A stretch of DNA of 64,000 nt from Elusimicrobiota bacterium (GCA_046153645.1 JBJXGI010000042.1:93097-157096), one strand, 5' to 3'; positions 1,737 to 43,192 are shown, numbered from the stretch's first letter. Notes: a model not told the origin generated them from the sequence alone. Program-made: numbers and translations.

Positions 1737-1752
1737 AAAAACCATCAATGCA

Positions 1753-3198: not shown

Positions 3199-3199
3199 A

Positions 3200-3766
3200 C
3201 TAGAACTCTACTTTGGGAACGGCTTTGGCTTCAGGCGCAGCTTGAAAATATGTGTCTTTGGGTTTAAAACCAAAAAAACCGGCGACAACGTTTCCAGGAA
3301 ACTTTTTAACCAAAACATTAAAGTTTTGAATGGTTTCATTAAAACGCATTCGCTCAACCGCAATTCTGTTTTCAGTGCCAGCCAATTCATCTTGAAGCGC
3401 CATAAAATTGGCATTTGATTTTAATTGTGGGTAATTTTCCGCCACAACCAATAAACGTGAGAGGGCACTATCAATACCTTGATTGGCTTGAATTTTGTCA
3501 GACACAGTTCTGGCACCTGCCAATTTAGCTCTGGCTTCAGCAATTTGAGTGAAAATTTCATTTTCTTGCTTGGCATACCCTTTAACAGTGTTAACCAAAT
3601 TCGGAATTAAGTCTGACCGGCGTTGCATAACATTTTCAACTTGTGCCCAACTGGCAGTAATCGCTTCTTCTCCCGCCACCATTTGATTGCGAGGCCCAAT
3701 AATAAATGCTCCCGCCAAAACAACCAAACCAACAAGCACGCCTAAAACAACTAATACTTTCTTCAT
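3200..3766 (-). CDS. lemA: LemA family membrane protein
   Basis: N-terminal transmembrane helix followed by the conserved LemA core (SWAQVENVMQRRSDLIPNLVNTVKGYAKQE ... ENYPQLKSNANFMALQDEL). Its stop codon abuts the photolyase gene. Confidence 0.8.
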   Translation of the reverse strand: MKKVLVVLGVLVGLVVLAGAFIIGPRNQMVAGEEAITASWAQVENVMQRRSDLIPNLVNTVKGYAKQENEIFTQIAEARAKLAGARTVSDKIQANQGIDSALSRLLVVAENYPQLKSNANFMALQDELAGTENRIAVERMRFNETIQNFNVLVKKFPGNVVAGFFGFKPKDTYFQAAPEAKAVPKVEF

Positions 3767-3780
3767 TTTTTTCTCCTTCC

Positions 3781-4485
3781 TTACAACTTATCTACAGATT
3801 GAATGACAGCATCAATATTCTTGATATATCTTTCGAACAACTTTTGTGGACTTTTTAAAAGTGAATGTTTTTCTTTATTTCTATGTTGAAGTACCGCTTC
3901 TAAGGCTTCAAGGTCCAAGGAAATAATTTTATTTAATTCGTACCAGACCTCTTGTTTCTTCCAGACAATAGACAAATTTTTTAATCTTAAAACACCTCGG
4001 TAAAGTGAAGTAATAGAACTTAAAGACTGCGCCAATAAATCGAGAATCTTTTTAGAGTCCGAAAAACATTCCAAATATCTTTGGCGAAGGGTTAAGAGCT
4101 TCGCTCTCAATTCAAACTCGAGTTGATGGCGAAAATGACCAAGTTCAATGTGAACGCCAGAAAAAGGGTCGTTTCCAAAAAAAATCTGATGAGAACTTTG
4201 AATATCTAGAAATTCCAGTGGAAACACATCAAGCGAATTTTGAAACTCATGCTCACTAAAAATTGAAGGTAAAGAATATCCTTTTTTATTCCAATTTTTT
4301 AATAGAAACCCTAATTTATCAAGTGTAAAAACATCAACCCTTTTCAGCAAAACCAATAAATTAATATTGGAAAAAAACTTGGTTTCATCTTTCGAAACAG
4401 CTGATCCATAAAGCACAACGGAAGCTAAATTTTCGCCCAATTCATTTTTCAACTTTAATAAGAGAATTTCACAATCTTTTATCAT
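3781..4485 (-). CDS. Nucleotidyltransferase-fold protein (NTase domain plus C-terminal helical domain) with a probably degenerate active site.
   Basis: The hG[GS] motif is present (VVLYGSAV). The canonical [DE]h[DE]h motif is replaced by SNINLLV, so both catalytic Asp positions are Asn. Located between the TPM and LemA genes. Confidence 0.55.
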   Translation of the reverse strand: MIKDCEILLLKLKNELGENLASVVLYGSAVSKDETKFFSNINLLVLLKRVDVFTLDKLGFLLKNWNKKGYSLPSIFSEHEFQNSLDVFPLEFLDIQSSHQIFFGNDPFSGVHIELGHFRHQLEFELRAKLLTLRQRYLECFSDSKKILDLLAQSLSSITSLYRGVLRLKNLSIVWKKQEVWYELNKIISLDLEALEAVLQHRNKEKHSLLKSPQKLFERYIKNIDAVIQSVDKL

Positions 4486-4499
4486 TTATTCCTCCTGCC

Positions 4500-5231
4500 T
4501 TACCAACCTCGTGAAGACCCTCCACCGCCAGAAGACCCTCCACCAAACCCTCCAAAACCGCCGCCACCAAATCCACCATTTCCGCTGCCGCCTCCTCTTG
4601 AAATAAGAAAAAATAATAACCAAGGGTGACGAATGAAAACAATGAGAGCGATAATAAAAATAATAAAGAAAAATATTTTTTCTATGAATGTTAATGGACG
4701 AACTTTCTGAAGATCTCTCGAAGAAAGACCTTCTAATTGAACACCAGAACTTTGAGCCAACAACTGAGCAATGGTGACAGCACCTTGCACCACCCCTTCA
4801 CTTAAATTTCCCGTACGAAATTGAGGTAAAACAATTTGATCTAATATCTGCCCTGCTTTGCCATCATTGATGACCGCTTCTAGACCATACCCCACTTCAA
4901 TGCGCATTTTCCGCTCACCAGGGACAATTAAAAATAAGACTCCATTGTTTTTTCCTTTTTGACCAATCCCCCAGCGTTTAAACAACTTAACAGACTCGGT
5001 TTCAATATCACGCCCTTCAAGAGTGGGAATAGTGACCACCGCAACTTGATCTGATGTTTTTTGTTCAAGAAAAAACAATAACTTCTCTAATTTTATTTTA
5101 TGTTGAGGAGAAATAATTCGTGCCTCATCAGTAACATAAGATTCAGATTTCAACTGCTCTATTCTCGTAAGGGAAAAAAGAAAAGAAAATGGAATAAAAA
5201 AAAGAGTAAAAATAAACAGATATCGTTTCAT
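4500..5231 (-). CDS. TPM-domain (YgcG-like) protein with signal peptide, C-terminal transmembrane helix and Gly-rich tail.
   Basis: TPM-fold core (VAVVTIPTLEG ... GVLFLIVPGERKMRIEVGYGLE), a transmembrane helix near the C-terminus, and the tail GGGSGNGGFGGGGFGGFGGG. The LemA-TPM pairing is classical. Confidence 0.75.
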   Translation of the reverse strand: MKRYLFIFTLFFIPFSFLFSLTRIEQLKSESYVTDEARIISPQHKIKLEKLLFFLEQKTSDQVAVVTIPTLEGRDIETESVKLFKRWGIGQKGKNNGVLFLIVPGERKMRIEVGYGLEAVINDGKAGQILDQIVLPQFRTGNLSEGVVQGAVTIAQLLAQSSGVQLEGLSSRDLQKVRPLTFIEKIFFFIIFIIALIVFIRHPWLLFFLISRGGGSGNGGFGGGGFGGFGGGSSGGGGSSRGW

Positions 5232-5239
5232 TTTTCTTG

Positions 5240-6835
5240 TTATTCGACAGGTGCTAAACGGAGAGTAGCCAAAGCAATTTCTGCCTGAACAAAAGGATTT
5301 TCTTCAATTCCTAAGCGCGATAACACTTGAGAGTAATCATCGCTAGTTCCATAACGACTGAGATACCAATAACTCATAGCACGAGAAGGCCAGTCTGGAT
5401 CGTTAAGCCTGGCCAAAAAAGAAAGCCTTGGAGACGTTTCTCCAAATTTAGCCAAAACTTGTAACGCGTAAACCTGAACCGCTGCAGAGGCGTCGTTGCC
5501 GGCTAAATTATAAACATAAGGAATAGCCGATTTAAAACGCCCCACCTCCACTGCTTCTAAAGCGCCCATACGAACAATGGCATTTTTATCGGCCAGCGCA
5601 TCTTGAACCAAATAAATATCACTTTCATCACGGCTATACGATAATGCAATCAACGCGCTTGCTTTAACCAAGGGATTGGTTGAATTTTGAGCCAAACGTT
5701 GTAATTCTGAACGCATTAATGGGTCGGTGGTTCCTCCCAGGGCTTCAATAAGGAGATAACTCAATTCTGAGTAACGAGTCTTAAGAGCAAACCCACTCGG
5801 CGTTACCATGGAATTCAACTCTTCTAAAATAGGATCCTGTTGCTGAATAGGATCTAATGGTTCTCCCAACCGATCCCGGATTAGTTTTAGAAGACCTGAA
5901 TTGATTTGGGCTGCAATTTGAAGTGAAGCAGGAATTTTAAGACGGGGGGGTGTAATGACCAAAGGTTCTAACTCAATAGCACTGTCTCTACCAATCGTGT
6001 AAGCCACCTCTTCGTTATCTCTCCAAGCTTTTTGAGAAGGAGAATAACTGGATTTTTCCCCTTTTTTAGAAATAAGTTTAAGAGCCGCAATAGAAAGCTC
6101 CGCAATAACAAAATCATTTCGAGTTTCACGGTTTAAATAACTCACAATTTTCGGATAATCATTGGGATTACCATAATCTCCAAGGTAACGGGCCGCCATT
6201 GCGCGAACGACCCAACTGTTATGATCTAAACCCTTCCATAATGCATCAACCGCTGATTCTTGACCCAACGATAAAAGAGCTTGTGCGGCAACAATTTGCA
6301 TTAAAGGGGACCAATCTCGATCTTTAGCCAATTGAAGAAGGGAAATGGCCTCAGCTTGTCCCCACGTTTGAAGAGCCTCAACAGCGGCAAAGCGAATTCC
6401 AATTTTTCCATCCAACACCGCTTCTTTAAAATATTTTTTGTGTAGTGGGTCTCCTAAACTGGCCAAGGTAATAATGGCTTGAGCGCGAACCTTGGGATTT
6501 CGTGACCATTGCACCATTTCTATCAGGCGTTTTCTCAAATCAGGATCACGAGCAGCTTTTAACGCTTCCACCAAAGAAACCCCAAACTCTAAATACCGAA
6601 GTTTTAAACGATATCCCGCAGGAGTGGCAAAGGTAATAATTTGTGCCAGAGAAGTAGACTGATAATCTTCAGCGCTTATTTTTGTTTTATCTTGTTTTTC
6701 AAGTAGGTCAACCAATGTTTGTGTGACCCCGGTTAAATTGGGTGCCGCTTGAATGGTGTTAACGGGTGCCAACCCACCACACCCAATGGTCAGAATAAAG
6801 AGTGACAGAACAAATACCGAATTTATTTTTCTCAT
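5240..6835 (-). CDS. HEAT/PBS-lyase-repeat lipoprotein
   Basis: Lipoprotein signal (LFILTIGCGG) followed by repeated 30-aa HEAT-like units (PNVRAQAIITLASLGDP, DWSPLMQIVAAQALLSLGQ, PNDYPKIV and others). Confidence 0.6.
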   Translation of the reverse strand: MRKINSVFVLSLFILTIGCGGLAPVNTIQAAPNLTGVTQTLVDLLEKQDKTKISAEDYQSTSLAQIITFATPAGYRLKLRYLEFGVSLVEALKAARDPDLRKRLIEMVQWSRNPKVRAQAIITLASLGDPLHKKYFKEAVLDGKIGIRFAAVEALQTWGQAEAISLLQLAKDRDWSPLMQIVAAQALLSLGQESAVDALWKGLDHNSWVVRAMAARYLGDYGNPNDYPKIVSYLNRETRNDFVIAELSIAALKLISKKGEKSSYSPSQKAWRDNEEVAYTIGRDSAIELEPLVITPPRLKIPASLQIAAQINSGLLKLIRDRLGEPLDPIQQQDPILEELNSMVTPSGFALKTRYSELSYLLIEALGGTTDPLMRSELQRLAQNSTNPLVKASALIALSYSRDESDIYLVQDALADKNAIVRMGALEAVEVGRFKSAIPYVYNLAGNDASAAVQVYALQVLAKFGETSPRLSFLARLNDPDWPSRAMSYWYLSRYGTSDDYSQVLSRLGIEENPFVQAEIALATLRLAPVE

Positions 6836-6880
6836 GACAAAGAATTTATCAAATCTATTTAAGCAGAGCTTTAGAATATT

Positions 6881-7654
6881 CTAAAAAGAAAGACTGGAAG
6901 GCAGATCAGACGAAGCAAAAACTTCACCTTCAAATAACTGGTCTTTGAGGTATTGTTTCATTTGAACTGAGTTATAAGGTGTTTTTGGATCTTTTATTAA
7001 AATAAGGGCTTTGGGTTGTAATAATCCCGCCAACTCAGAAACAACCGTAGATTTAAGCTCATTAAAATCTAAAAGGTATACCTGATCCAATTCTTTTCCA
7101 TCATCTCGCAGAGAATAGGTAAATTCTCGAAAAGAGTTGGTGTTGTCAGGGATAAGGGAAATCAATATATGACGACCATGATCAAATTCAAAAAAATATC
7201 CCATTTGTTTTTCACCATGAACAGAGAGAGTCAATGCCGTTACAAATAAAAAATGGTTCTCTTTTTTAAGCATCAGGCGTGATGAAGGCTCTAATCCTTT
7301 TACTTGAGTAAACCCTTTTTCTTGAATAGATTTACTTAAAAGCGAGGGGCAAATTATTTTTATATCTTTTCTTAAAGCTTCAAAGAACCCAGAAGGAAAA
7401 GGTCCTCCGGTCAAGAAAAAATAATCAGCTACCGTCACTAATGAGGGGGGAAGAGAATTTATTACAATTTTTATTTGATCAAATTGTATTGATAAACTTT
7501 TCGAAGAGCGTATCTCAATCTGGTTAGTACTTTTCTCAAATGGCCAATTAATTATTTCAGGAACAGAGGGGCGAGATAAAATAATCTTTTTATTTTCAGC
7601 ACATCCAAAAAAGAATGAGAAAAGAAAACAGAAATAAATGTTTAGCAGTTTCAA
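6881..7654 (-). CDS. Hypothetical lipoprotein
   Basis: Signal peptide ending in FFFGCAENKK (lipobox). No known domain recognised. Confidence 0.45.
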   Translation of the reverse strand: MKLLNIYFCFLFSFFFGCAENKKIILSRPSVPEIINWPFEKSTNQIEIRSSKSLSIQFDQIKIVINSLPPSLVTVADYFFLTGGPFPSGFFEALRKDIKIICPSLLSKSIQEKGFTQVKGLEPSSRLMLKKENHFLFVTALTLSVHGEKQMGYFFEFDHGRHILISLIPDNTNSFREFTYSLRDDGKELDQVYLLDFNELKSTVVSELAGLLQPKALILIKDPKTPYNSVQMKQYLKDQLFEGEVFASSDLPSSLSF

Positions 7655-7663
7655 GGAAAAATT

Positions 7664-8050
7664 TTAATTTGATATCCTAGCAGCATCGGATGGACCACCC
7701 AAACCAGTAGGATCTGTCACTGGAGAAGTAGGTATAACAACAGCAACTTTAGATGTACCATCATCGCTTTCACCAGCAGATTTATCTTCAGGCCAAACAT
7801 AGTTAATGACATCGGATTTATCATAATAACCGACATCATTATTATTCAATTTCGCAGGCTGAACACTCATTCCTTCATCAGTGACAAAATTATCGCCATT
7901 TGGCAATATTCCAATACTAGTAGAGGGTTTTCTGGCTGGAGAATAATCAGAAGCTGCATATAAATAAACAAGGGTGACGGTTGATAATGCCACCATAAAT
8001 GAGCCAATAAAGAAATAATGCTTAATTGCACCCCGTGTATTGTTTTTCAT
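7664..8050 (-). CDS. Hypothetical membrane-anchored protein; last gene of the pilin-like operon.
   Basis: N-terminal transmembrane helix. Co-directional and tightly spaced with the pilin genes. Confidence 0.4.
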   Translation of the reverse strand: MKNNTRGAIKHYFFIGSFMVALSTVTLVYLYAASDYSPARKPSTSIGILPNGDNFVTDEGMSVQPAKLNNNDVGYYDKSDVINYVWPEDKSAGESDDGTSKVAVVIPTSPVTDPTGLGGPSDAARISN

Positions 8051-8171
8051 ACGTTAAGTTTGTCTCCTATTCCCTTAAGATTCAATAGAATTTTCGATTA
8101 AGATTTGATTAAGAAGAAATAACCTAATATTTTTATCTAAAACACATTGATTTTACAAATCATTTTTTGAG

Positions 8172-9608
8172 TCAATACATATTCCCTGTTTGACCTGTTT
8201 TCTCTATGGAATAAATTATCTCAGATGTGACAGGAATAAAAGGTGGCGGACTGGTTTTAAGCGAATTCATATAAGAATAGGTACGGGGGGGAGTTCCTCC
8301 AGTAAGATCATTATAGACATCCGGAATACTTTGAGGGGTACTTCCCAAAATCATTGAGCCAGAAAAAATTAATTTCATATTAGCCGGAGCAGTGAGATCT
8401 GCATAAATACTCGCTATGAGACGCCCGTGCGGAGCCATAACCAAAGCTTGAATGGTTTGAGTGACTGGAGCACCAGTATAGTAGGTTGAAGAAATGATGA
8501 CGTTTCCTCGAGTAATTAAAATAGCCTGATGCGCAGTTGAAGAACTGGGCAGCGGATCTCCCGGATAAGGACCGATACCCGGATTAATAGTGAGGTTACC
8601 AGTAATAAAAATATCTCTCTCAGATACGAATAACACCTGACCATTGACTTCTCCATCAATCCGCATCGAATTAGCAGAATAATAAATATGCTCTTCGTTA
8701 TCACAAGTGCGTAAACCTGGGTATTGGACTAAATATTGATCAGTGGGAGTTGAATGTGCAGCCGGAGTGCAGACACCTCCTCCCGTATCCCGGAAATATC
8801 CGGGAGGAAAAATTTTAGTTTCCGGTCCTCCTACCGCGATAGGAACATTAGAACCAAATAAATCTTTTACTGTATGCGCATTTGCCAATGTTTCATAACG
8901 ATCCAAGTCCGCTTGAAGAACTTGGGGAAAAAGCATGGGCTGGTTTAACCGAATGGGCATTTTTGCCTCAGGCCCTATGGATGGCTCTGTGATGTCTATT
9001 TGAGCTGGAATGATTGCACCACCCCACAACTTTGGAGGGGTCACCGTCTGAGTAAACTCTGCCTGTAGTACTTTGGTTACTAACGCCGAACCAGTTAAGT
9101 TAAAAATCAAATTAGGGGCATAAATTTTTCCGAGGGAAACATCTACGCCTTTTGTAATAACCAATGGATCAGCCCCTGAAATAGCCGCGAAATAATCCGC
9201 TACATTTGAAACCTTGGCATATGTATGCAAAGTTGTTGAGTAATCTTTCCCATTCCTTGTTCTCGTCGCGGAAGTGACAATGTAATAATTAGTGCCTCCA
9301 ACAAATGCTCCTGAAGTTAAATAATTGGTAAATGATTCTCCAGATTCAAACCCTGACTGGGCAACACCAGTCCATGTAAAATCATTTGGGTTATTTGCAA
9401 TTCTTCCCATGGCTTGCGATAGTCCTGTTTCAACCAAACGATAGGTTTTATTCATTTCATCCAAGTAATAAGATTGGTGAGAACTTCTTTTCAGAACTTC
9501 GGAAATCGCAATAATTCCTAAAAAAATACTAATCGCAAAAACACCAGCAAAAGCAACTGAAATACCTTTTACGTTAAAAGCCCAGTATTTTTTAGATAGT
9601 TTTTTCAT
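8172..9608 (-). CDS. Pilus-associated protein, possibly PilX- or PilY1-like, with N-terminal membrane anchor.
   Basis: A 478-aa ORF whose start is 3 nt from the end of the upstream pilin gene. N-terminal transmembrane helix and a beta-rich S/T/G-rich body. No prepilin cleavage motif. Confidence 0.45.
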   Translation of the reverse strand: MKKLSKKYWAFNVKGISVAFAGVFAISIFLGIIAISEVLKRSSHQSYYLDEMNKTYRLVETGLSQAMGRIANNPNDFTWTGVAQSGFESGESFTNYLTSGAFVGGTNYYIVTSATRTRNGKDYSTTLHTYAKVSNVADYFAAISGADPLVITKGVDVSLGKIYAPNLIFNLTGSALVTKVLQAEFTQTVTPPKLWGGAIIPAQIDITEPSIGPEAKMPIRLNQPMLFPQVLQADLDRYETLANAHTVKDLFGSNVPIAVGGPETKIFPPGYFRDTGGGVCTPAAHSTPTDQYLVQYPGLRTCDNEEHIYYSANSMRIDGEVNGQVLFVSERDIFITGNLTINPGIGPYPGDPLPSSSTAHQAILITRGNVIISSTYYTGAPVTQTIQALVMAPHGRLIASIYADLTAPANMKLIFSGSMILGSTPQSIPDVYNDLTGGTPPRTYSYMNSLKTSPPPFIPVTSEIIYSIEKTGQTGNMY

Positions 9609-9610
9609 AT

Positions 9611-10171
9611 TTATAACGTTGTCCGCTTCATTGATTCAGCCCTAAAAGTATAAGTAGTATCTTTTGTTAAGGGTATTTTTAATCGAAAAATAATTTCGGC
9701 CGATTGGCAGTAGGAAGTGCAACCACTAGGCAAACCTTTAAAAATCCCATCACTTAGTGTGGGAGGTAAAAGGAGGTTTGTTAAAAGAAACCGATCACCT
9801 CTCCCTTCACCTGGAAATTCTTCAGTTCTTTTGAGAAAAGTTTTTCCAGCTTCAGCTGTATACTGATAAGTTATTGTTCCGGTTTGAACAGGATCAAATA
9901 AACTAGGGTTCGTAAAATTATATTTTTTAAAATTAAAGGTGTTAAGGATAAGGGTCGTTGAACTGGTATGAACAATGGCACGACAATTTCGAACTTCTCT
10001 AACTACACCATATAAAACAGTTTGGATTTGTTCTTGAGCTGTAATAAGGGCGCGTTGTCTGGCAAAATCGTTAATGATACGAATACCAATTTCAGTCATG
10101 GCATAAACAATTCCTAAAACAGCAGCAACCATGGCCATTTCAGCCACTGTGAATCCTTTTTTATTTTTCAC
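9611..10171 (-). CDS. Prepilin-type (class III signal peptide) minor pilin or pseudopilin
   Basis: The N-terminus is MKNKKGFTVAEMAMVAAVLGIV. This gives G at -1, F at +1 and E at +5, followed by a hydrophobic helix. Confidence 0.8.
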   Translation of the reverse strand: MKNKKGFTVAEMAMVAAVLGIVYAMTEIGIRIINDFARQRALITAQEQIQTVLYGVVREVRNCRAIVHTSSTTLILNTFNFKKYNFTNPSLFDPVQTGTITYQYTAEAGKTFLKRTEEFPGEGRGDRFLLTNLLLPPTLSDGIFKGLPSGCTSYCQSAEIIFRLKIPLTKDTTYTFRAESMKRTTL

Positions 10172-10179
10172 TTTTATTC

Positions 10180-13122
10180 TTATAATCCCCCACCGCCGCC
10201 ACCACCTCCACCAGATCCTTTTCGGTTCATTAATACTATATCAGTTCGAGACATGGGCAGGCCACTAACTTCGTCATAATTATACCCTTCAAATTCAGGT
10301 GTGTTGACATCATGAAAATCAACATGGGCAATGTAATGTGAAAAATTCCCCCCTTGGTAAGGAAAAAATACTTCATTTGGGAACCCGTAATATCCATTTT
10401 CATCGGTTAAAGATGATGTTTGAACCCAAGATTTTTGACCTTGCGCGTCTTGAACTGTCTTTTTTAACCAAACAATCGCCCCTGCAATAGGAGGGTTGCC
10501 GCTTGTATTTTCTCTGACATATCCATCAATCAAAGTAGCCTTTGCTTCTTTTACTACTTCAATATCAGGACCTGAAAATCCATCGACACCCAAACCACCA
10601 GCATTTAGATTATAAGAATATAAAGGGCCAGACTGAGGACCAGGAAAATTGAAGAACCAATTTTCATTTACAACTGTGTCGTTTTTAACAGTTAAATAAA
10701 ACTTATCCCAAGTTTCCACTGGATTACTAGGAATGACAACAGTGTAATTATTATGGTGCGTTCGTGGTTGTAATTTTAGAGGAGTAGACCAACCAGAATA
10801 TTCATTATAAGAGCGAACATTATTTGCCCAACTATCAGGACCGTCAAATAGCCCATTTGTGACTCTCACATTCCTGGTAACAACGTCATTAAAATCAACT
10901 CGTGTATAATCAATGACAAGATCATTAATATCAACATCTGCAGAGGGTAAAACAACATGGGGGTAAGCATAAACCCCTCCACCAATATCTCTTCTGACTT
11001 TAACAATCCCTTTTACCTTTCCATAAAAATCTTTTGAAGTTGGAGTGCCATCTTTAGCCAAATACCTAAATACGGTTTTATCTTGCCCTAGATTGGGAGG
11101 TAACGGTAGACTCAAATCCCCACTAAAATTATAAGTTTGGCTCACACCGGCTGTGATAACAGTGTCGATTTGTTTCTTATATTTTAAAACCGCTTTGTCA
11201 CTATTACCTCCCGAAAATTCAACATAACCAAAGCCTCTTTCCCAAGGTTTAGCTGCATCAGGAATAAATAGGTCCCACATAGAATGGACAATATGAATAT
11301 CATAAGGGTCCAACAAAGAAGGCGTGAACGGATCGTCACCACCCACATTATTTACAATGCGGATTTCGCCACTGAGATTAGAAAGTGAATCTCGATTCAA
11401 AAAATAAATATCTTTTGTATTCCCAAGAGCGAGTCCACCTGTTTTAACTTTGAGATTAAACCCACCAACGGTTGTTTGAAGATTGGCGCTATTACGTATA
11501 GGAACAGGCAATTCATAATTATTACCATAATAACTGGCATAATCCGAAATCAATAACATTTTGGCCTCTTCGAAAGTATTGGCAAGGGAATTAAAAGTTA
11601 TTTCATTTATCGAATTTTGTAGCGCTGGTTGAACCAAAATAGGAGTTAACGGAGCTGGAACCGCATAATCGGCTTGAGTTGTGTCAAAAGAAGTTCGTAA
11701 AGCAACCTCGTTCCATTGTTGCGCGTAATCTATTCCTTTTTCAAGCATTGTGGGGGTAAAATTGTTTATCTGGAAGACTCCATTTATAGCAACCTGTTCA
11801 ATAAAATTCCCAATCCCATTCCACTGAGGAATATGGGGACAATATCCCTCAAGATAACAATACCCAAGCATACTCTGCCGCAAATAATATCTTACATTGG
11901 AACCAGTCAGAGTTTGAAAAGCATCGTAATAAATTTTGATTTTGGCGTTTGCATTAATCACTGAACCCACAACTATTTCAGCGGCGTTACCAAGAGTAAC
12001 TGAAACAGGTTTAATGAATCCTTTAATTGAGCCTTTTTTGGGAATATCATAAGTTTCAGTTATTGTCCCTTCTGGAGGTAACGTTACAGTCGGCCCCGTA
12101 TAAACGCCAAAAAAGAGAGAGTCGGTTGTATCCACTCCAGGGTATTCTGTATTACCCAAAAAAACCGGAGCATAATCGCCAGGAGGAAGAGAATCGATTG
12201 TGGCAATCCCATCGACACCGGTATTTACTTTTTTAACAAAGTGTTGGTTCGCCCAAGCATTTCCAAAAATTTCCCTTAATGGATCAGCATACGGCAAAAG
12301 GTCCATTCCTTGAGTCATGCCATTATTAACCTTTATATTACTAGGATCATCAATGTCGCGTACTTCGATTTTAAGTTTACTCAACAAATACCCTTCAATG
12401 GGAGTATCAAAAAAAGTGGTTTCAGTTTGAGCCGCATGAGTGGGACCCGTTCTCCAACTAGGACCAGAGAGAACGTATTTGTTACCTCCATAATTAAAAT
12501 AACAAACGGGAGAACCTGTCACGGTGAAGGGAATGCCCTGAATTTTATCAATAGCAACATCTTCTAAAGTTAATTCTCCATCAGAATTGGTAAAACCATA
12601 CCGAGTTAAAGATTGACCACGCATTTCAATTTTTACACCAGCAATCCCTTCTGAGGGAACATTGGCTCGAACGACTTTAAATTTAACATTAGCCCCAGGA
12701 GAATAAGCTCGAACCTGAGAGATAGAAAAATTCATTTCTTTGGTTCTTTCTTCATTATTTTCTTTCCAAAGAGCTTTTATCTTAACAGTTCTTGTGCGAT
12801 TATCAGAACGAACCGGATCTATCCAGGCAAGTACCTTTATATCTCTGTCATATATATCGGGGTCAGGATATTGTTTGCCCGCAGTGCCACTGGCAGTCAT
12901 GGTATCGAACTTATAGGACGCTTCGTATCGTATGAGCTCTGTGACACTTCTTAATTTTGCATTAACTCTTGTTCTATTATTGACGTTCACTCCTCCAATA
13001 GAAAATGAGCGTTGAACAACCATGGCCGAAGCCAACACAAAAACAAGAATACCCACTCCTACTAAAAGTTCAGCGAGCGTGACACCAGAAAATTTCTTAT
13101 TTCGTTTATTAGAGTTCAACAT
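10180..13122 (-). CDS. Giant prepilin-type protein of 980 aa with a poly-Gly C-terminus; a modular pilin or adhesin.
   Basis: The N-terminus is KKFSGVTLAELLVGVGILVF, with G at -1 and E at +5. About 930 aa of beta-rich sequence follows. The C-terminus is GSGGGGGGGGGL. It is a paralogue of the 13226..16210 gene. Confidence 0.75.
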   Translation of the reverse strand: MLNSNKRNKKFSGVTLAELLVGVGILVFVLASAMVVQRSFSIGGVNVNNRTRVNAKLRSVTELIRYEASYKFDTMTASGTAGKQYPDPDIYDRDIKVLAWIDPVRSDNRTRTVKIKALWKENNEERTKEMNFSISQVRAYSPGANVKFKVVRANVPSEGIAGVKIEMRGQSLTRYGFTNSDGELTLEDVAIDKIQGIPFTVTGSPVCYFNYGGNKYVLSGPSWRTGPTHAAQTETTFFDTPIEGYLLSKLKIEVRDIDDPSNIKVNNGMTQGMDLLPYADPLREIFGNAWANQHFVKKVNTGVDGIATIDSLPPGDYAPVFLGNTEYPGVDTTDSLFFGVYTGPTVTLPPEGTITETYDIPKKGSIKGFIKPVSVTLGNAAEIVVGSVINANAKIKIYYDAFQTLTGSNVRYYLRQSMLGYCYLEGYCPHIPQWNGIGNFIEQVAINGVFQINNFTPTMLEKGIDYAQQWNEVALRTSFDTTQADYAVPAPLTPILVQPALQNSINEITFNSLANTFEEAKMLLISDYASYYGNNYELPVPIRNSANLQTTVGGFNLKVKTGGLALGNTKDIYFLNRDSLSNLSGEIRIVNNVGGDDPFTPSLLDPYDIHIVHSMWDLFIPDAAKPWERGFGYVEFSGGNSDKAVLKYKKQIDTVITAGVSQTYNFSGDLSLPLPPNLGQDKTVFRYLAKDGTPTSKDFYGKVKGIVKVRRDIGGGVYAYPHVVLPSADVDINDLVIDYTRVDFNDVVTRNVRVTNGLFDGPDSWANNVRSYNEYSGWSTPLKLQPRTHHNNYTVVIPSNPVETWDKFYLTVKNDTVVNENWFFNFPGPQSGPLYSYNLNAGGLGVDGFSGPDIEVVKEAKATLIDGYVRENTSGNPPIAGAIVWLKKTVQDAQGQKSWVQTSSLTDENGYYGFPNEVFFPYQGGNFSHYIAHVDFHDVNTPEFEGYNYDEVSGLPMSRTDIVLMNRKGSGGGGGGGGGL

Positions 13123-13225
13123 TTGAGTTCAACCAACCAAGTTATATCTAGAAACAATATAACCCCCAAGAACTCAAAATGTCAGGGTTTTATTTATAGA
13201 AAAGAACTACGAAATATATTGATAA

Positions 13226-16210
13226 TCAAAAATTTCCACCGGGACCACCACCACCACCCCCAGCACCATTTCTAATCATCAAAACCTCAACATTTTCGGA
13301 GTAAGGATAACCACTTGATTCATCGTAATTATAACCTTCACTCCAGGGCCGAAGAACGGCCCCAAAATCAACATTAAAATAACTCATTTGAATGTTATTA
13401 CCTGGATAAGGGAAATAAGGAACATTATTAAAAGAATAATATCCGTTCACGTCAGTTGTCGTATTTAATTGTGACTCACCTTGAGTACCATCGGGATTAC
13501 GAATGGTTCTTTTTAAAAAAACAACAACACCTTGAATAGGAGGATAGGGGGTCGAAGCCAAAAGCTCTTTTGTATATCCTTCAACCAAACCTGTTTTGGC
13601 TTCTAAAACCACTTCAAGGGCGGGACCGGAAAAACCGTCAACCCCAGGACCGCCGGCATTTAAACTATATTGATACATCGGGCCGCCAAACCCAGGGAAA
13701 TTAGAAATCCAGTTTTGTGCCGGATCCGTATCTCCTGTTACACCTAGATAAAATCGATCCCATTTTAAAACAGGCGTATTAGGGACAATGACGTCTAAGT
13801 TCGTTTCCTCTCCAGGGTTTAATTTGGTCGGAGTTGACCAAGTTTCATACGTGTCATAAGAACGGACATTATTGGGCCAACTATCAGCGGGGTCAAATAA
13901 TTGATCGGTTATTAATACATTCCGAGTCGTGGTATCACCAAAATCAAGTCGGGTATAGGCTATGGTTAATTCATCAATATCTACCTGGCTGGTTGGTAAA
14001 TTAATTTGAGGATATGAAATGATACCACCTGTATTTCTTTTTACTTTCACCTTCGCATCAACCACACCAAAAAAAGATTTGGTGTGATTAGTCGCATCTT
14101 GAGCTGAATACTTGAATACTGTTTTATCTTGTCCAAGATTTGGCGGCAAGGGGAAGGGTAGGCCTCCAGGCATCGCAAAAGTATATGTTTGTTTGTTTGG
14201 AATACTCACGAGGTCAATATCCGAATCAACCCGAACCGCACTTCGAATAATCGCTTTATTTGGATCACCACCTATAAAATCTACATATCCAAAGCCTCTT
14301 TCCCATGGTTTTAAAGGATCTGGAATATTACCAGCGAAATTGGGAAACCCAGGGTCGTACCATAATATTGCAACATTGTGCGCATCTCCCGGGTCGGAAA
14401 AATTGGCTGGGGCCCAATGGTTACTTCCTCCAACACCATCTGATATGCGAATTTCGCCTGTCAAATTTGCAAGGGAATCGCGATTTAAAAAATAAATATC
14501 TTTGTTATTACCAGTCACCAATCCACCCAATTTAATTCGAACATCCCAATCAGAAACTGCAGTGGTACCACCACCAGTATCTCTTATAGGAATAGAAATT
14601 TGAAAAGGATTACCAAACCTATCGGTAATGTCTGTTAGTAATATCATTTTCAAATCATCATAGTCAGCTGGAGGAAACGCAGGGCTATTATTAGGAGTTT
14701 GATTTTTATGTTGAACTAAAATAGGGGTAACAGGTGCGGGTATAAAATAATTTGTTGCCCCGCTATCCATTGAAGGTCGAAATGACACTAAGCTCGTCTG
14801 ATTATTATTAGTAGAAAGGTTACTAGGGTTACTGGTTAAAGCGCCTGAACGAACAGCAAAATTTGGAGTAATATTATTAATTAAATAATTTCCGCCATTT
14901 AATACGATGTCAAACCAATTACCAAAAACATTCCCCAAAGACAAATGTGAGCATTGGTTGTTTCTAAAACAGTCGGCTGCGATCGTTCCAGACATCAATG
15001 TTTCAACATTTAAAGGATCAAAAACTTTATAAAAATCAAAATAAAATCTTAATTTCATAGAAGTTGCTACATTGGCGCCAACACTTACTTGTGGCACTGC
15101 GAGAAGAGCAGCAGACACACTTTTAATATTGCCTCCCATGGCTCCTTTTTTGGGAACTTGGACATTAATCACTTTGGTCTCTTCCACCCCAAGCGTATTT
15201 TGATGAGCAAAATTTGTATGAGAATCTAAAAGTTCTAATGCGGGATGTTCTGGGGACCCTAAAAAAACCGCTTCATAATCTCCCGGGGGAAGACCTGAAA
15301 CAATGGCCTCTCCATTTGTGAATGGGGCACCAGTTGTCGCATCGCTCGTATAGGGGTGATAAGGAAAAATAATTTTCAATTCATTGGAAACTGTTTTTTC
15401 CCGAATTCGAATTCTAGCACCATCTACAAGAGTATTCGTTGGGTCATCGGTAACGACAAATTTATATTTTGAAAGAAGGTATCCTTGAATCGGGGTAACG
15501 AAATGAGTGTCATCTGTTTGCCCAGGAGAAGTAGGCCCTGTTCTCCAAGAAGGACCGGTCAGAAAATACTTATTTGTTCCACCATCATTAAAATAGCAAA
15601 CCGGAATACCTGAAACAGTCATACTAGCCCCAAACACAGAATCAGCATAAACATCATCTAATGTGAGAGACCCATCTGCAGCAGTAAAACCCAAACGAAT
15701 TCCATTTTGACCATGAACTTCAATTTTTACATTTTGAATACCTTCAGCGGGATTAACGGCTCGCACCACTTTGAAACGAGCTCTCGCTGCAGGCGCAATG
15801 GCTTTAACAAGACCAATAGAAAAAACCGATGTTTTTGATTTTTCTTGATCACCCTCTTTCCACTTAGCAAGAAGTTCAACTCTTCTTGTTCTATTATTGG
15901 AATCGATGGGGCCAATCCAGGCAAAAACTTTAATATCACGATCATATATATCTGGATTTGGAAGTTGAAGGGCAGTAGGGGTGGCTGTCATAACAGCGAA
16001 ATCATAAGAAGCGCGGTACCTCAATTCTTCACTAACGCTTCTTAACTTTGAATTAACTCGGGTTCGATTATTAACACTGACCCCACCTCTAGAAAAAGAT
16101 TTCTCAACAACAAGAGCGGAAGTCAAAATAAAAAGAAGAAGAGCCACTCCCACCAAGATTTCGGGGAGAGTAATTCCGGCATTTTTCTTTAGTCTGGTAC
16201 AATTTTTCAT
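13226..16210 (-). CDS. Giant prepilin-type protein of 994 aa; tandem paralogue of the 980-aa pilin.
   Basis: The N-terminus is KKNAGITLPEILVGVALLLF, with G at -1 and E at +5. It shares blocks with the downstream gene (CYFN.GG, LSGPSWRTGPT, IYFLNRDSL.NL.GEIRI, KPWERGFGYV, LPLPPNLGQDKTVF, RNV..T, SLNAGG.GVDGFSGP). The C-terminus is GAGGGGGGPGGNF. Confidence 0.75.
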   Translation of the reverse strand: MKNCTRLKKNAGITLPEILVGVALLLFILTSALVVEKSFSRGGVSVNNRTRVNSKLRSVSEELRYRASYDFAVMTATPTALQLPNPDIYDRDIKVFAWIGPIDSNNRTRRVELLAKWKEGDQEKSKTSVFSIGLVKAIAPAARARFKVVRAVNPAEGIQNVKIEVHGQNGIRLGFTAADGSLTLDDVYADSVFGASMTVSGIPVCYFNDGGTNKYFLTGPSWRTGPTSPGQTDDTHFVTPIQGYLLSKYKFVVTDDPTNTLVDGARIRIREKTVSNELKIIFPYHPYTSDATTGAPFTNGEAIVSGLPPGDYEAVFLGSPEHPALELLDSHTNFAHQNTLGVEETKVINVQVPKKGAMGGNIKSVSAALLAVPQVSVGANVATSMKLRFYFDFYKVFDPLNVETLMSGTIAADCFRNNQCSHLSLGNVFGNWFDIVLNGGNYLINNITPNFAVRSGALTSNPSNLSTNNNQTSLVSFRPSMDSGATNYFIPAPVTPILVQHKNQTPNNSPAFPPADYDDLKMILLTDITDRFGNPFQISIPIRDTGGGTTAVSDWDVRIKLGGLVTGNNKDIYFLNRDSLANLTGEIRISDGVGGSNHWAPANFSDPGDAHNVAILWYDPGFPNFAGNIPDPLKPWERGFGYVDFIGGDPNKAIIRSAVRVDSDIDLVSIPNKQTYTFAMPGGLPFPLPPNLGQDKTVFKYSAQDATNHTKSFFGVVDAKVKVKRNTGGIISYPQINLPTSQVDIDELTIAYTRLDFGDTTTRNVLITDQLFDPADSWPNNVRSYDTYETWSTPTKLNPGEETNLDVIVPNTPVLKWDRFYLGVTGDTDPAQNWISNFPGFGGPMYQYSLNAGGPGVDGFSGPALEVVLEAKTGLVEGYTKELLASTPYPPIQGVVVFLKRTIRNPDGTQGESQLNTTTDVNGYYSFNNVPYFPYPGNNIQMSYFNVDFGAVLRPWSEGYNYDESSGYPYSENVEVLMIRNGAGGGGGGPGGNF

Positions 16211-16366: not shown

Positions 16367-17413
16367 TTGAAAATTAAACTAAGTTTAAGCTATCGCTTGC
16401 AGATCTGTGTTTCTGGGCATAGGCTGTATCTTGTGAAAATACTAATTGATTTCTCTCCAAAATCACTCATCAGTCCCCTTATTCTAATTGCCATACTCAT
16501 TATCACATCTTATTTTTTACCTTGGATGACATTTGTGACCCTCATTGTTGGAGGTGTGGCCTATTTTTCTTGGGCAAAGCGAAAAAACTTACTTTTATCC
16601 GAACTTGTAAAGGGATTAAAACAAATCTCAAATGGTCAATTAGACATCTCTATGGATATTCCCAAAGATAAAGAATTTTCTGAAGCAATGACGACATTCA
16701 ATAAAATGGTGGAAGGTCTCCAAGAACGAGATCGGATGAGACATTCCTTGGGAAGAATTATGGATCCCAAGATTGCTGAAATCCTTATAAAAGAAAATCC
16801 CAAAGTCGGCGGATTACGCCGCGAAGCTACAATTTTGTTTTGCGATATTAGAAACTATACTTCTTTATGCGAAGAAATGACCGTCGATGAATTACAACTT
16901 TTTCTTAATGACTATTGGACAGGAACAGTTGAAATCATTATGGAAGAAGAAGGAACCATTGATAAGTTTCATGGAGACGGCGTTTGCGTTGTATTTGGGG
17001 CCCCTAACCTTCATGAGGACGACCCCTTGCGTGCTGTAAAAACCGCCTGGAAACTAGTGCAAAATGTGGAAATCTTAAATATCAAAAGGGAGAGTCAGCG
17101 CAAAACACCTATTAATATTGGCGTAGGAATCCATACGGGAGAGGTCATTGCTGGACATATCGGCTCAGAACGGAGGATGGATTACACGGTTGTGGGAGAT
17201 GTCGTCAATGTAGCCGCACGAATTGAAGAACTCAACAAAAAATTTGGTACAAAAATCCTTATTAGCGACAATGTCTATGAGAAAGTAGAACCTTACGTAA
17301 AAGTAAAAACATTAACTTTAGCTCACCTAAGAGGGCACAAACGCCCCATTTTAGTTCATACCGTAAGAGAGCTTCTGCAAGATAAAGACCAACAAATAAA
17401 GAAAGCAGCTTAA
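16367..17413 (+). CDS. Membrane-anchored HAMP-domain class III adenylate/guanylate cyclase
   Basis: Two N-terminal transmembrane helices, a HAMP-like linker, and a cyclase catalytic domain (ATILFCDIRNYTSL, FHGDGVCVVFGAP, GIHTGEVIAGHIGSERRMDYTVVGDVVNVAARIEE). Confidence 0.8.
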   Translation: MKIKLSLSYRLQICVSGHRLYLVKILIDFSPKSLISPLILIAILIITSYFLPWMTFVTLIVGGVAYFSWAKRKNLLLSELVKGLKQISNGQLDISMDIPKDKEFSEAMTTFNKMVEGLQERDRMRHSLGRIMDPKIAEILIKENPKVGGLRREATILFCDIRNYTSLCEEMTVDELQLFLNDYWTGTVEIIMEEEGTIDKFHGDGVCVVFGAPNLHEDDPLRAVKTAWKLVQNVEILNIKRESQRKTPINIGVGIHTGEVIAGHIGSERRMDYTVVGDVVNVAARIEELNKKFGTKILISDNVYEKVEPYVKVKTLTLAHLRGHKRPILVHTVRELLQDKDQQIKKAA

Positions 17414-18402
17414 AGAAGAGAAGCGGTAATCTGAGCGTTGGTAGGGTACTTATTCAGTAAATCAGAAAGAGCTTGAGCCGCATCAACTTCATTCATACTG
17501 GCCAAAGCAGCACGAAGAGTTCGATTGGCTTTTAATTCTTCAGGAGAAAAAAGGAGTTCTTCTTTTCTAGTTCCAGACTCACGAACATTAATAGCTGGAA
17601 AAATTCTCCGATCTGAAACATCTCGTGATAAAACCAATTCCATGTTCCCAGTCCCTTTAAATTCTTGAAAAATAACATCGTCCATTCGGCTTCCGGTTTC
17701 AACAAGAATGGTGGCTAAAATTCCAAGGGATCCTGGACCTTCAATGTTCCTGGCTGTACCAAATATTTTTCGCGGAATTAAGAGTCCATTGGCATCAACT
17801 CCACCTGACATGGTGCGGCCCCCACCACGCATCGCACTATTATGAACTCGCGCTAAACGAGTTAAGGAATCAATAAGAATCATCACATCTTGGCCAGCAT
17901 TGGCTTGTTCTACGGCTTGTTTGATCAATTCATTGGCAACACGAATATGATTTTCATACGGTTGATCAGAAGTTGAAAAACGGACTTCGGCAGTAACGCT
18001 TCTTTTAAAATCGGTCACTTCTTCCGGGCGTTCATCAACCAGCAAACAATAAACTTTCAAATTGGGATCGGCTTTAGTAAGAGCCATACAAATGTGTTTT
18101 AGAAAAGTTGTCTTACCAGATTTTGGGGGAGAAACAATCAGACCTCTTTGACCTTTTCCGATGGGACAAATGAGATCCATAGCTCGAACCGTATGCTCAG
18201 ACAAACCTTTTTCTAAAAGAATTCTGGGTGCTGGATCAATGGAAACTTTATCGAAAAATTCTCGCTGAGCAGCACTGGGCTGCTGAAAATTTTGCTGGGG
18301 ACGTTGGCCATTATTATTAAATGGGCGTCTAAATTTATTATTGCCTTGCTGAAAAGGGCGTTCACCGAAACGTTTACGGCGCGGCTTATTATTAGAAAAC
18401 AT
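17410..18402 (-). CDS. rho: Transcription termination factor Rho, ATPase domain only. The N-terminal RNA-binding domain is replaced by a roughly 45-aa R/Q/N-rich tail.
   Basis: Walker A motif GKGQRGLIVSPPKSGKT, followed by LVDERPEEVTDF, SLTRLARVHN and MSGGVDANGL...TARN (Q- and R-loops). These align with E. coli Rho from about residue 118. No OB-fold is present. The upstream ORF is an unrelated membrane protein. Confidence 0.85.
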   Translation of the reverse strand: MFSNNKPRRKRFGERPFQQGNNKFRRPFNNNGQRPQQNFQQPSAAQREFFDKVSIDPAPRILLEKGLSEHTVRAMDLICPIGKGQRGLIVSPPKSGKTTFLKHICMALTKADPNLKVYCLLVDERPEEVTDFKRSVTAEVRFSTSDQPYENHIRVANELIKQAVEQANAGQDVMILIDSLTRLARVHNSAMRGGGRTMSGGVDANGLLIPRKIFGTARNIEGPGSLGILATILVETGSRMDDVIFQEFKGTGNMELVLSRDVSDRRIFPAINVRESGTRKEELLFSPEELKANRTLRAALASMNEVDAAQALSDLLNKYPTNAQITASLL

Positions 18403-36241: not shown

Positions 36242-36256
36242 ATTATTTCCTTTTTA

Positions 36257-39127
<2,871 letters not shown>

Positions 39128-39131
<4 letters not shown>

Positions 39132-40297: not shown

Positions 40298-40298
40298 C

Positions 40299-41471: not shown

Positions 41472-41646
41472 GATTTTTGGCCCTCTTGCTTTTAAAATGC
41501 TGATTATCAATTATTTTTACTTAAAACTTATTCGATACGGCTGTGGATAGTTATCCCCTTTTATCCCTGTTATCCACAGCTTTTAACATCATCCACAAAA
41601 AAACGCGCTATTTCTATGGTTTATCCACAACTTATCCCCCGCCTAT
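41472..41646. promoter_or_regulatory. oriC candidate: DnaA-box cluster plus AT-rich element in the dnaN-dnaA intergenic region
   Basis: Three boxes match TTATCCACA exactly, one reverse (TGTGGATAG, 41542-41550) and two forward (41570-41578 and 41621-41629). Degenerate boxes are TCATCCACA, TTATCCCTG, TTATCCCCT and TTATCCCCC. An AT-rich stretch at 41489-41540 flanks them. Confidence 0.75.
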
Positions 41647-43035: not shown

Positions 43036-43154
43036 GTCCCTGCTCTGTTGGAAACCATCTATATGGCAACCATAAGTAAATTTAGAAAAAGATGGGTAAG
43101 GATAGAAAACCAAACACCGAAGGTCAAATAGATATCGCCGGGCAATTTATTTGG

Positions 43155-43183
43155 TTGCGGACACTTTTTTCAAAAGCTAAGAT
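43155..43183 (+). promoter_or_regulatory. Candidate rpmH promoter, possibly leaderless
   Basis: TTGCGG, a 17-nt spacer, then TAAGAT. The predicted transcription start lies within a few nt of the rpmH ATG, and no SD is present. Confidence 0.25.
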
Positions 43184-43192
43184 TTGCTCCTC

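Follow-up and report, generated by a model that had tools for sequence, protein, structure and literature searches.

A conserved gene cassette encoding giant pilin-headed proteins in Elusimicrobiota, a candidate minor-pilin tip complex

The locus described here lies in a 64-kb window (the whole stretch of DNA that was analyzed, part of a 181-kb MAG contig from an uncultured Elusimicrobiota bacterium). With moderate confidence, it is best read as a minor-pilin cassette serving a type IV filament, which is most likely a type IVa-like pilus and has its assembly machinery and major pilin encoded at other sites. The core of the cassette would comprise three parts. The first is a modular pilin of ~900-1000 aa with a minimal GspI-like head, two beta-sandwich stalk domains, a variable beta-rich body of ~550 aa, and a C-terminal beta-sandwich followed by a Gly tail. 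The second is a conventional pilin of ~190 aa, and the third is a protein of ~460 aa with a prepilin-like N-terminus lacking Glu5. The first-pass annotation had taken the giants for minor-pilin-adhesin fusions, perhaps alternative tip adhesins, and the pilin head, the stalk-like beta-sandwiches, and the tandem paralogy leave this as the best reading.

Gene layout and prepilin-like N-termini

ORF calling identified five minus-strand genes running from 16210 to 7664, all of them present where the first-pass annotation had placed them. In transcription order they encode proteins of 994, 980, 186, 478, and 128 aa, separated by intergenic gaps of 103, 8, 2, and 121 bp (Table 1). The co-directional minus-strand run extends beyond these five genes, down to 3200. 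A promoter and terminator scan of the locus returned background levels only.

Table 1. Features of the locus, with positions counted in the window; a slash marks the end of a leader.
Feature	Position	Strand	Remarks
Giant modular pilin A, 994 aa	13226..16210	-	ORF; NCBI ACKVQC_04010 'hypothetical protein'; family of 33 representatives
Class III leader of giant A, residues 1-12 (MKNCTRLKKNAG)	16175..16210	-	predicted cleavage after Gly12; mature start ITLPE
Pilin module of giant A, residues 13-135	15806..16174	-	alpha1 helix 15-70; antiparallel strands 94-103, 108-119, 122-133
Two tandem transthyretin/CarboxypepD_reg/CnaB-like beta-sandwiches of giant A, residues 142-223 and 241-318	15257..15787	-	
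Central body of giant A, residues ~319-871	13598..15256	-	beta-rich; no Pfam or PDB match
C-terminal CarboxypepD_reg-like beta-sandwich of giant A, residues 872-945	13376..13597	-	PF13620 E = 1.5e-4; internal HMM cross-matches
Poly-Gly C-terminal tail of giant A (GAGGGGGGPGGNF)	13229..13267	-	sequence
Giant modular pilin B, 980 aa	10180..13122	-	ACKVQC_04005; tandem paralogue of A; PF13620 E = 1.2e-5
Type IV pilin-like protein, 186 aa	9611..10171	-	GTG start; MKNKKG/FTVAE; second cassette member
Prepilin-like protein without Glu5, 478 aa	8172..9608	-	NVKG/ISVAF; third cassette member; candidate K-type cap subunit
128-aa protein, one N-terminal hydrophobic segment	7664..8050	-	inconsistent cassette accessory
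Putative lipoprotein, 257 aa	6881..7654	-	neighbour, not core part
HEAT-repeat protein, 531 aa	5240..6835	-	neighbour, not core part

Three of the five proteins begin with a short basic leader, a Gly at position -1, and a hydrophobic stretch of about 20 residues, giving the class III sites KKNAG/ITLPE in giant A, KKFSG/VTLAE in giant B (leader MLNSNKRNKKFSG, mature start VTLAE), and KKG/FTVAE in the 186-aa pilin. When every ORF in the window was scanned with a regular expression, the class III motif was confined to these three genes. The three class III signal peptides that had been reported are all real, but the prepilin-like N-terminus of the 478-aa protein, which lacks Glu5, had been overlooked, and the pilin-like proteins in the operon are four, not three. 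Among relatives of the giants (P0001-P0033), all 30 members with a complete N-terminus carry an acidic residue at +5, which is Glu except for Asp in P0011; one of them, P0023 (GFSMVE), was missed by the regular expression, and its N-terminus was read by eye. These 30 homologues all keep the short basic leader and Gly at -1 as well as the acidic +5 residue. In the three cassette proteins, prepilin peptidase would be expected to cut the leader after Gly-1.

Architecture and paralogy of the giant proteins

An AF2 model of residues 1-340 of giant A, built on a 33-sequence alignment (pLDDT 81), placed the N-terminal helix on a three-stranded antiparallel sheet and followed it with two beta-sandwiches. 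The predicted head therefore has the long alpha1 and the antiparallel beta-sheet of a pilin fold, in a minimal form that is superposable on GspI. By structure and profile comparison, the two stalk domains resemble CnaB/transthyretin-like adhesin stalks. A full-length AF2 model of the 994-aa protein, for which the alignment held the two paralogues only, reached a pLDDT of 25 and was unusable. The conserved motif in the homologues and the model of residues 1-340 indicate that the giants are genuine pilin-headed proteins with adhesin-stalk-like beta-sandwiches in the body. No ligand-binding domain was identified in the giants, so that the word adhesin is used for them by analogy.

The composition of the giants is G 9.4%, N 7.7%, T 7.6%, and S 6.7%. 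Both end in the poly-Gly tails that had been noted at the outset (that of giant B reads GSGGGGGGGGGL), and about half of the family members that are full-length have a Gly-rich tail similar to that of giant A. Since no transmembrane segment follows the tail, no known C-terminal sorting signal fits it. The poly-Gly codons are mixed, and a slippage-prone repeat was rejected on that ground.

The description of the two giants as tandem paralogues was borne out: their full-length identity is 46% (BLASTP, E = 0), and the conserved blocks quoted for both are all present. In a sliding-window comparison, identity was 50-72% in the head and 20-38% over residues 250-550. That the copies are most diverged in the central body suggests, at the level of sequence, two alternative or complementary tip specificities. 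The giant gene alone is duplicated in this genome; in L001 and L005, two of the related loci described below, the whole cassette is duplicated.

In an exhaustive HMMER search of a database that reduces 15 billion proteins, by clustering at 50% identity, to 1.84 billion cluster representatives, the giant family had 33 representatives, mostly of 880-1200 aa. CarboxypepD_reg (PF13620) was matched by 21 of 23 family members, with a best E of 3.5e-15, and one relative of 942 aa (P0005) had already been named 'prepilin-type N-terminal cleavage/methylation domain-containing protein' by JGI. With a single giant as query, a word-indexed homologue search returned only the protein itself and its paralogue, and a PDB sequence search gave no match. 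With the family profile, the word-indexed search was flooded by unrelated CarboxypepD_reg-repeat proteins, and the PDB search found transthyretin-like domains and marginal pilin N-termini only.

A three-gene cassette and its possible function

When the locus was compared across relatives, a fixed order of giant, pilin of ~160-226 aa, and Glu5-less protein of ~440-506 aa was found in eight loci, namely the window, L001 (two cassettes), L002, L003, L004, L005 (two cassettes), L006, and L007. Nine cassettes are complete, and in one more the giant is cut by a contig end. A scan of GTDB genomes found a single Elusimicrobiota MAG. JAYTIE01 and GCA_964405835.1 are other MAGs with the cassette. Orthologues of the 186-aa pilin come after the giant in all eight loci and in every complete cassette (alignment A7); N_methyl was matched by six of eight of these small pilins (best E = 9.3e-7), and their family profile matches pilin N-termini in the PDB (E = 3e-5). 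Of the eight orthologues of the 478-aa protein (alignment A6), seven are complete at the N-terminus, and each of these shows a basic leader, a Gly, a hydrophobic stretch, and F, L, S, or Y at +5; the eighth, from the first cassette of L005, begins inside the hydrophobic stretch. The first-pass annotation had called the 186-aa pilin ordinary and had ignored the 478-aa protein, and here it has to be revised: the conserved unit is the giant together with both of these proteins.

A search of 5.8 billion clusters at 90% identity gave the 478-aa family 21 members, all annotated as hypothetical, and two metagenome scans with this family found nothing. The family had no Pfam match, with neither T2SSK (PF03934) nor PilX_N (PF14341) detected in any of the 8 aligned members, and its profile had no match in the PDB; a K-like role is therefore proposed from the missing Glu5 and the gene order. 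The giants and their Glu5-less partner are two protein families without annotation.

Other neighbors follow the cassette less regularly. Small proteins weakly similar to the 128-aa protein trail it in L001 (twice) and L004, and are absent after it in L002, L003, L005, L006, and L007. The HEAT-repeat protein and the lipoprotein were rejected as core parts, because the pair is absent from five of the eight loci (L001, L002, L003, L006, and L007) and, where it does lie beside another cassette, is on the same strand in L004 and on the opposite strand in L005.

Loss of Glu5 is the hallmark of the capping K subunit, and such complexes present modular pilins at filament tips (PMC9934059, PMC8179133). 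For the minor-pilin cassette proposed here, we infer that the three mature alpha1 helices may form a staggered priming complex in the inner membrane, comparable with GspI-J-K, PilV-W-X, and PilA-B-C, and that the Glu5-less subunit may cap it. Major pilins would then polymerize below the complex, which would thereby reach the filament tip. From there the ~100-kDa body of the giant would project and could serve as an adhesin, a role held by the non-pilin PilY1 in well-studied diderms, and the duplicated giant would supply the alternative or complementary tips. The canonical HIJK complex has four subunits; three are conserved in this cassette.

The closest structural matches of the predicted head are the T2SS pseudopilins GspK, XcpV/GspI, EpsI, and GspI, and the order of an I-like protein, a pilin, and a Glu5-less protein parallels gspI-gspJ-gspK. 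Both observations would also suit minor pseudopilins of a T2SS-like endopilus rather than a surface pilus. An I-J-K-like trio would in that case prime a short periplasmic pseudopilus, and the body of the giant would act at or inside the secretin, perhaps by plugging it, by adapting substrates, or as an exoprotein tethered to the surface. We regard this as unlikely.

In the 64-kb window, tblastn with E. coli GspD/E/F/L/M/O and Pfam scans (48 of the 54 listed ORFs of at least 120 aa, the six omitted all overlapping a longer ORF) turned up neither a secretin nor an ATPase, a platform protein, or a prepilin peptidase, and no major pilin was seen there either; this counts against the minor-pilin cassette reading.

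The cassette adjoins assembly genes in none of the eight loci. Because a T4aP gene set is usually split among several sites in the genome (Denise et al. 2019, PMC6668835), the absence of machinery nearby is normal, and the earlier remark that none lies near the operon holds for the window but loses its air of oddness. The lack of both machinery and major pilin in the window, together with the very large bodies, would nonetheless also be expected if the class III signal had no use beyond export and inner-membrane anchoring, or prepilin-peptidase-dependent release, of envelope or surface proteins that form no filament. Such proteins would be comparable to those of the archaeal 'bindosome', in which sugar-binding proteins carry class III signals. 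This reading also draws on termite-associated Endomicrobium genomes, in which pilD and pilin genes persist although the T4P system is incomplete (PMC8809381). However, the head retains a complete pilin fold and the Glu5 needed for filament subunit contacts, and in eight loci the giant is strictly linked to a conventional pilin and to a partner without Glu5, as is characteristic of a priming/tip complex and not of surface proteins that act independently; proteins that do not polymerize are accordingly an improbable explanation.

The N_methyl (PF07963) scores of the three window proteins were 15.1, 14.6, and 16.7 bits against a gathering threshold of 21.2 (for giant A, E = 0.017), and TIGR02532 scored 14.7 on window proteins against a cutoff of 16.3, so that the prepilin call comes from the motif, the family conservation, and the predicted fold and not from Pfam. 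In the giant family, N_methyl was matched by 18 of 23 members, with a best E of 2.7e-7. These subthreshold scores, and the generic CarboxypepD_reg-like domains that make up most of the proteins and swamp homology searches, would be in keeping with an ordinary uncleaved signal anchor on generic membrane-anchored beta-sandwich surface proteins, its prepilin likeness being coincidental, but in the modeled N-terminal part of giant A the helix belongs to a pilin head and is no bare anchor, and this very improbable explanation is already largely refuted.

A bolder form of the minor-pilin cassette reading may be put forward tentatively, although we consider it doubtful. The cassette would then be a self-contained, PilY1-independent tip/priming complex of a diderm T4P, in which a ~100-kDa adhesin doubles as the I-type nucleator and the K-type cap comes from a structurally new family of ~460 aa. 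The duplications would provide interchangeable tips with different binding specificities, and a specific function would fall to the conserved poly-Gly C-terminus, which could be a flexible tether or mark the protein for processing.

Comparison with known filament systems

More than 1,200 modular pilins with 264 architectures have been catalogued, including a protein of 860 residues (Raynaud et al. 2021, PMC8179133), and the first-pass statement that known modular pilins are under 600 aa was wrong. With a pilin head followed by CarboxypepD_reg/transthyretin/CnaB-like domains, the giants are modular pilins in the sense of that study, in which N_methyl (IPR012902) combined with PF13620 is the third most common class, with 66 proteins (PMC8179133). 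The closest modular pilins are PilB (vWA) and PilC (lectin) of Streptococcus sanguinis, in the PilA-B-C tip complex (PMC8179133; Shahin et al. 2023, PMC9934059). At 980-994 aa, the giants are about twice as long as these proteins (< 500 aa), and they have a multi-domain beta-sandwich stalk and a ~550-aa body where PilB and PilC have a single vWA or lectin domain. Their host belongs to a diderm phylum, unlike S. sanguinis; they have no detectable sequence homology to PilB/PilC; and the Glu5-less subunit is a protein of ~460 aa here, whereas in S. sanguinis it is a small PilA-like pilin.

The GspI-GspJ-GspK (T2SS) and PilV-PilW-PilX (T4aP) priming/tip complexes (Korotkov and Hol 2008, PDB 3CI0) are also close, although the cassette conserves no H-type fourth subunit and its I-like subunit carries an extension of ~850 aa. 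When the three families were aligned with E. coli GspI, GspJ, and GspK by hhalign, the probabilities were 27%, 28%, and 1.8%, and nothing was found past the N-terminal motif (for GspI, the alignment was limited to the N-terminal 25 residues). This comparison does not place the giant head in the GspI/PilV sequence family, and the I, J, and K labels are therefore used as analogies of structure or position that imply no homology.

The PilY1/PilC tip adhesins of diderm T4aP share with the giants a size of ~100 kDa, a presumed tip position, and a presumed role as effector on a minor-pilin complex. PilY1, however, is a non-pilin with a C-terminal beta-propeller (IPR008707), whereas the effector of the giants is covalently fused to a pilin head; in Pfam scans, neither the window proteins nor any of 23 family members had a PilY1/PilC beta-propeller. 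CofB/TcpB (T4bP) and Thermus ComZ, which initiate assembly at the tip (summarized in PMC8179133), likewise combine a pilin head with grafted beta-repeat, beta-sandwich, or beta-solenoid domains; the giants resemble CofB/TcpB in neither sequence nor fold. The CnaB/transthyretin-like fold of the two post-head domains and the C-terminal domain is shared with Gram-positive sortase pilins and MSCRAMMs (SdrD B, BcpA, TIE, EbpB), in which the stalk domains are rigid spacers that project the adhesive region. Those proteins are attached by sortase and LPXTG instead of a class III signal.

If the minor-pilin cassette reading is right, the giants would rank with the largest pilin-headed proteins yet examined, and a diderm lineage, not just monoderms, would fuse its tip effector to a minor pilin instead of recruiting a separate PilY1. 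The cassette would then offer a compact three-gene system for studying priming and secretin passage of very bulky cargo, and a way to approach how members of the Elusimicrobiota, a poorly known phylum, attach to surfaces. Set beside these systems, the locus is an unusually large, uncharacterized case of the known modular-pilin strategy and not a new kind of system; it leaves the current picture of type IV filaments unchanged and extends the range of catalogued modular pilins.

The five genes and their surroundings

The five ORFs reported in the first-pass annotation were recovered at the positions given there, all on the minus strand (see table). Three of them, the tandem giants A and B and the 186-aa pilin, share an N-terminal class III motif (short basic leader, Gly, [I/V/F]T[L/V]xE, then a hydrophobic stretch) that a regular-expression search of every window ORF found in these proteins only. 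The giants are indeed paralogous (46% identical end to end), and all of the conserved blocks quoted for them, as well as the poly-Gly tails of both copies, were confirmed. The N_methyl scores of the three proteins (14.6-16.7 bits) fell below the Pfam threshold of 21.2, and the CarboxypepD_reg matches were likewise sub-threshold; domain calls therefore required independent support. In NCBI, the giants (ACKVQC_04010 and ACKVQC_04005) are both annotated "hypothetical protein", on a 180,946-bp contig of a metagenome-assembled genome labelled "Elusimicrobiota bacterium".

Pfam scans covered 48 of the 54 listed window ORFs of at least 120 aa (the six omitted all overlap a longer ORF). Housekeeping genes were identified, including the replication-origin cluster dnaA-dnaN-recF-gyrB-gyrA and yidC-mnmE, and no type IV pilus or type II secretion machinery was found among these ORFs; tblastn with E. 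coli GspD/E/F/L/M/O against the window also gave no match. The absence of machinery noted earlier thus stands for the window, but it is not odd, being ordinary for T4aP (PMC6668835).

Window GC is ~38%. The replication-origin region of the chromosome spans 33764-46591, with the minus-strand genes dnaA (41647-43113), dnaN, recF, gyrB and gyrA divergent from the plus-strand genes yidC (43611-45191) and mnmE. Cumulative GC skew is minimal at ~42 kb, and the 497 bp between dnaA and yidC (43114-43610) probably form oriC. A Rho-like protein (17410-18402, minus) has only 330 aa, a low-complexity R/Q/N/F-rich N-terminus with no recognisable Rho RNA-binding domain, and ATP-synt_ab as its sole Pfam match; a 316-aa relative in L005 (18918-19868) is similar in appearance. 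Other genes encode a 758-aa PAS-HisKA-HATPase_c sensor histidine kinase with an unusual C-terminal staphylococcal-nuclease (SNase) fusion (47322-49598, plus), a separate SNase protein (58033-58653), a 428-aa fusion of a VanX-type D-Ala-D-Ala dipeptidase (Peptidase_M15) with a YkuD L,D-transpeptidase domain (20983-22269, plus) and, at the window edge, a 570-aa protein without a Pfam match (24-1736, plus). Two clusters contain LemA (3200-5231, minus; 58799-60271, plus), the first together with a 234-aa protein of no known identity and a TPM-domain protein.

Features of the cassette, of the giant A model and of related loci (L001-L007)
Feature	Position, extent or gene lengths (aa)	Strand	Basis or source	Score
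Giant A, 994 aa	13226-16210	minus	ORF	
Giant B, 980 aa	10180-13122	minus	ORF	
186-aa pilin	9611-10171	minus	ORF	
478-aa protein	8172-9608	minus	ORF	
128-aa protein	7664-8050	minus	ORF	
Giant A continuous helix	residues 15-70		predicted model	
Giant A three long antiparallel strands	residues 94-103, 108-119, 122-133		predicted model	
Giant A two beta-sandwich domains	residues 142-223, 241-318		predicted model	
Head match GspK	84 residues, 2.3 A		3ci0_K	8.2
Head match XcpV/GspI	83/89		5bw0_B	8.1
Head match EpsI	79/84		2ret_A	7.6
Head match GspI	76/83		3ci0_I	7.5
Head match TTHA1222 competence pilin	69/86		5g2f_A	6.6
Head match N. meningitidis PilV	74/98		5v23_A	6.6
L001	(968-207-488-94) (942-196-469-190)		JGI contig	
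L002	886/894-184-450		Elusimicrobiota MAG GFS_2647	
L003	925-160-461		GCA_964405835.1	
L004	952-213-461-111-239-HEAT-HEAT		Logan SRR24524903	
L005	(976-217-471) (951-219-506)		Logan SRR14117728	
L006	919-226-450		ENA ERZ26692727	
L007	(partial giant)-188-440		JGI contig	

The giant pilin family

When a giant was used in a word-indexed search of 5.8 billion clusters, only the two paralogues were returned. An exhaustive HMMER search of 1.84 billion representatives with a two-sequence profile recovered 33 relatives, most of 880-1200 aa, that align over their full length at ~20% identity; judged from these databases, the family is rare. One relative already carries the JGI name prepilin-type N-terminal cleavage/methylation domain-containing protein. 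When 23 members were scanned individually, 18 matched N_methyl (best E = 2.7e-7) and 21 matched CarboxypepD_reg (best E = 3.5e-15). Moreover, all members whose N-terminus is complete carry Gly-1 and Glu+5 (Asp in one) with a leader of 7-25 residues, so that the motif on which the proposed pilin-headed nature of the giants depended is conserved among homologues.

A full-length giant model built on two sequences was unusable (pLDDT 25); residues 1-340 of giant A, modelled with the 33-sequence alignment, reached a mean of 81. The latter model predicts a pilin head, arguing against a signal anchor that lacks one, and the head matched T2SS pseudopilins best, followed by a competence pilin and PilV (see table). 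The beta-sandwiches resemble CnaB2, the carboxypeptidase D transthyretin-like domain and the SusC N-terminal extension, and also match stalk domains of Gram-positive pilins and MSCRAMMs. HMMs from the family's own domains showed that sandwich 1, sandwich 2 and a C-terminal domain (872-945) are mutually related; the ~550 residues between sandwich 2 and the C-terminal domain had no assignable fold.

Between giants A and B, identity is 50-72% in the head and 45-64% in the C-terminal half, and is lowest (20-38%) in residues 250-550, which would fit a ligand-facing region that diverged after duplication. The Gly tails are encoded by mixed codons, so they are maintained at the protein level rather than being slippage repeats. 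About half of the full-length family members have a Gly-rich tail ending in L, F, N or G. The TPM protein of the first LemA cluster also has a long Gly-rich C-terminal tail (...GGGSGNGGFGGGGFGGFGGGSSGGGGSSRGW); such C-termini are thus not confined to giant pilins in this genome.

The three-gene cassette

The conserved unit of the locus is a cassette of a giant, a ~190-aa pilin and a ~460-aa protein. Duplication recurs: only the giant is duplicated in the window, and in L001 and L005 the cassette is duplicated as a whole. The ~190-aa proteins share homology with the window 186-aa pilin; six of eight matched N_methyl, and their profile matched pilin N-termini in the PDB (E = 3e-5). The ~460-aa proteins share 33-40% identity and many invariant blocks with the window 478-aa protein, their homologue. 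In all seven with a complete N-terminus, Gly lies between a basic leader and a hydrophobic segment, and position +5 is F, L, S or Y rather than Glu; the eighth (L005, first cassette) begins inside the hydrophobic stretch. Only 21 members of this family were found in the 5.8-billion-cluster database; all are "hypothetical", and no Pfam or PDB relative was found.

Weak counterparts of the 128-aa protein occur at only two other loci, and a lipoprotein/HEAT-repeat pair neighbours the cassette in only two others, once on the opposite strand; none of these three proteins looks core. The pair (a 257-aa putative lipoprotein and a ~530-aa HEAT-repeat protein) is syntenic with the cassette in the window (5240-7654, minus), L004 (9607-13637) and L005 (2117-4452). 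In L005 it is also accompanied by LemA/TPM, and both there and in the window by an adenylate cyclase and Rho. Because its orientation differs in L005, this synteny may stem from common ancestry and not from function. Pfam lists and tblastn revealed no assembly machinery within 10 kb of the cassette at any locus. In L007, a co-directional 1,944-aa protein without a Pfam match (3361-9195) lies directly downstream of the cassette, followed by a TonB-dependent receptor and a BNR-repeat protein; in L004, adjacent co-directional unannotated proteins of 631 and 645 aa without Pfam matches (350-4182) lie directly upstream.

Comparison with known pilins and tip complexes

Modular pilins are established and widespread, with >1,200 proteins in 264 architectures, among which N_methyl plus PF13620 ranks third (66 proteins); the most extreme multi-domain example cited has 860 residues (PMC8179133), and the earlier size limit of 600 aa for known modular pilins was therefore wrong. 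The novelty is narrower. It comprises a family of pilins of ~900-1200 aa from a diderm phylum, rare and unannotated, its fixed partnership with the unannotated Glu5-less ~460-aa family, the recurrent duplication of giant or cassette, a conserved Gly tail and, by analogy, an apparently I-like head carried by the effector itself.

In type IV filaments, the minor-pilin complex (H-I-J-K) primes assembly and ends at the tip; I nucleates it, and K, which lacks Glu5, caps it. S. sanguinis has a simpler PilA-B-C complex displaying two modular pilins as adhesins, and the effector in studied diderms is PilY1, a non-pilin (PMC9934059, PMC8179133). Comparisons of E. coli GspI, GspJ and GspK sequence profiles with the cassette families gave nothing beyond the N-terminal motif, so the I and K labels are analogies of fold, missing Glu5 and gene order. 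We assume that a prepilin peptidase and an assembly machine are present in this organism; related Endomicrobia keep pilin genes as well as pilD (PMC8809381), and the phylum is reported to include Tad systems (PMC6668835). We infer leader cleavage, complex formation, tip location and adhesion, with the beta-sandwich spacers projecting the variable body of the giant. The cassette subunits follow the order of gspI-J-K: the giant, whose minimal head is GspI-like, then a conventional pilin, then a large subunit lacking Glu5. Given this shared logic, we read the cassette as a tip and priming complex with its effector fused to a pilin head.
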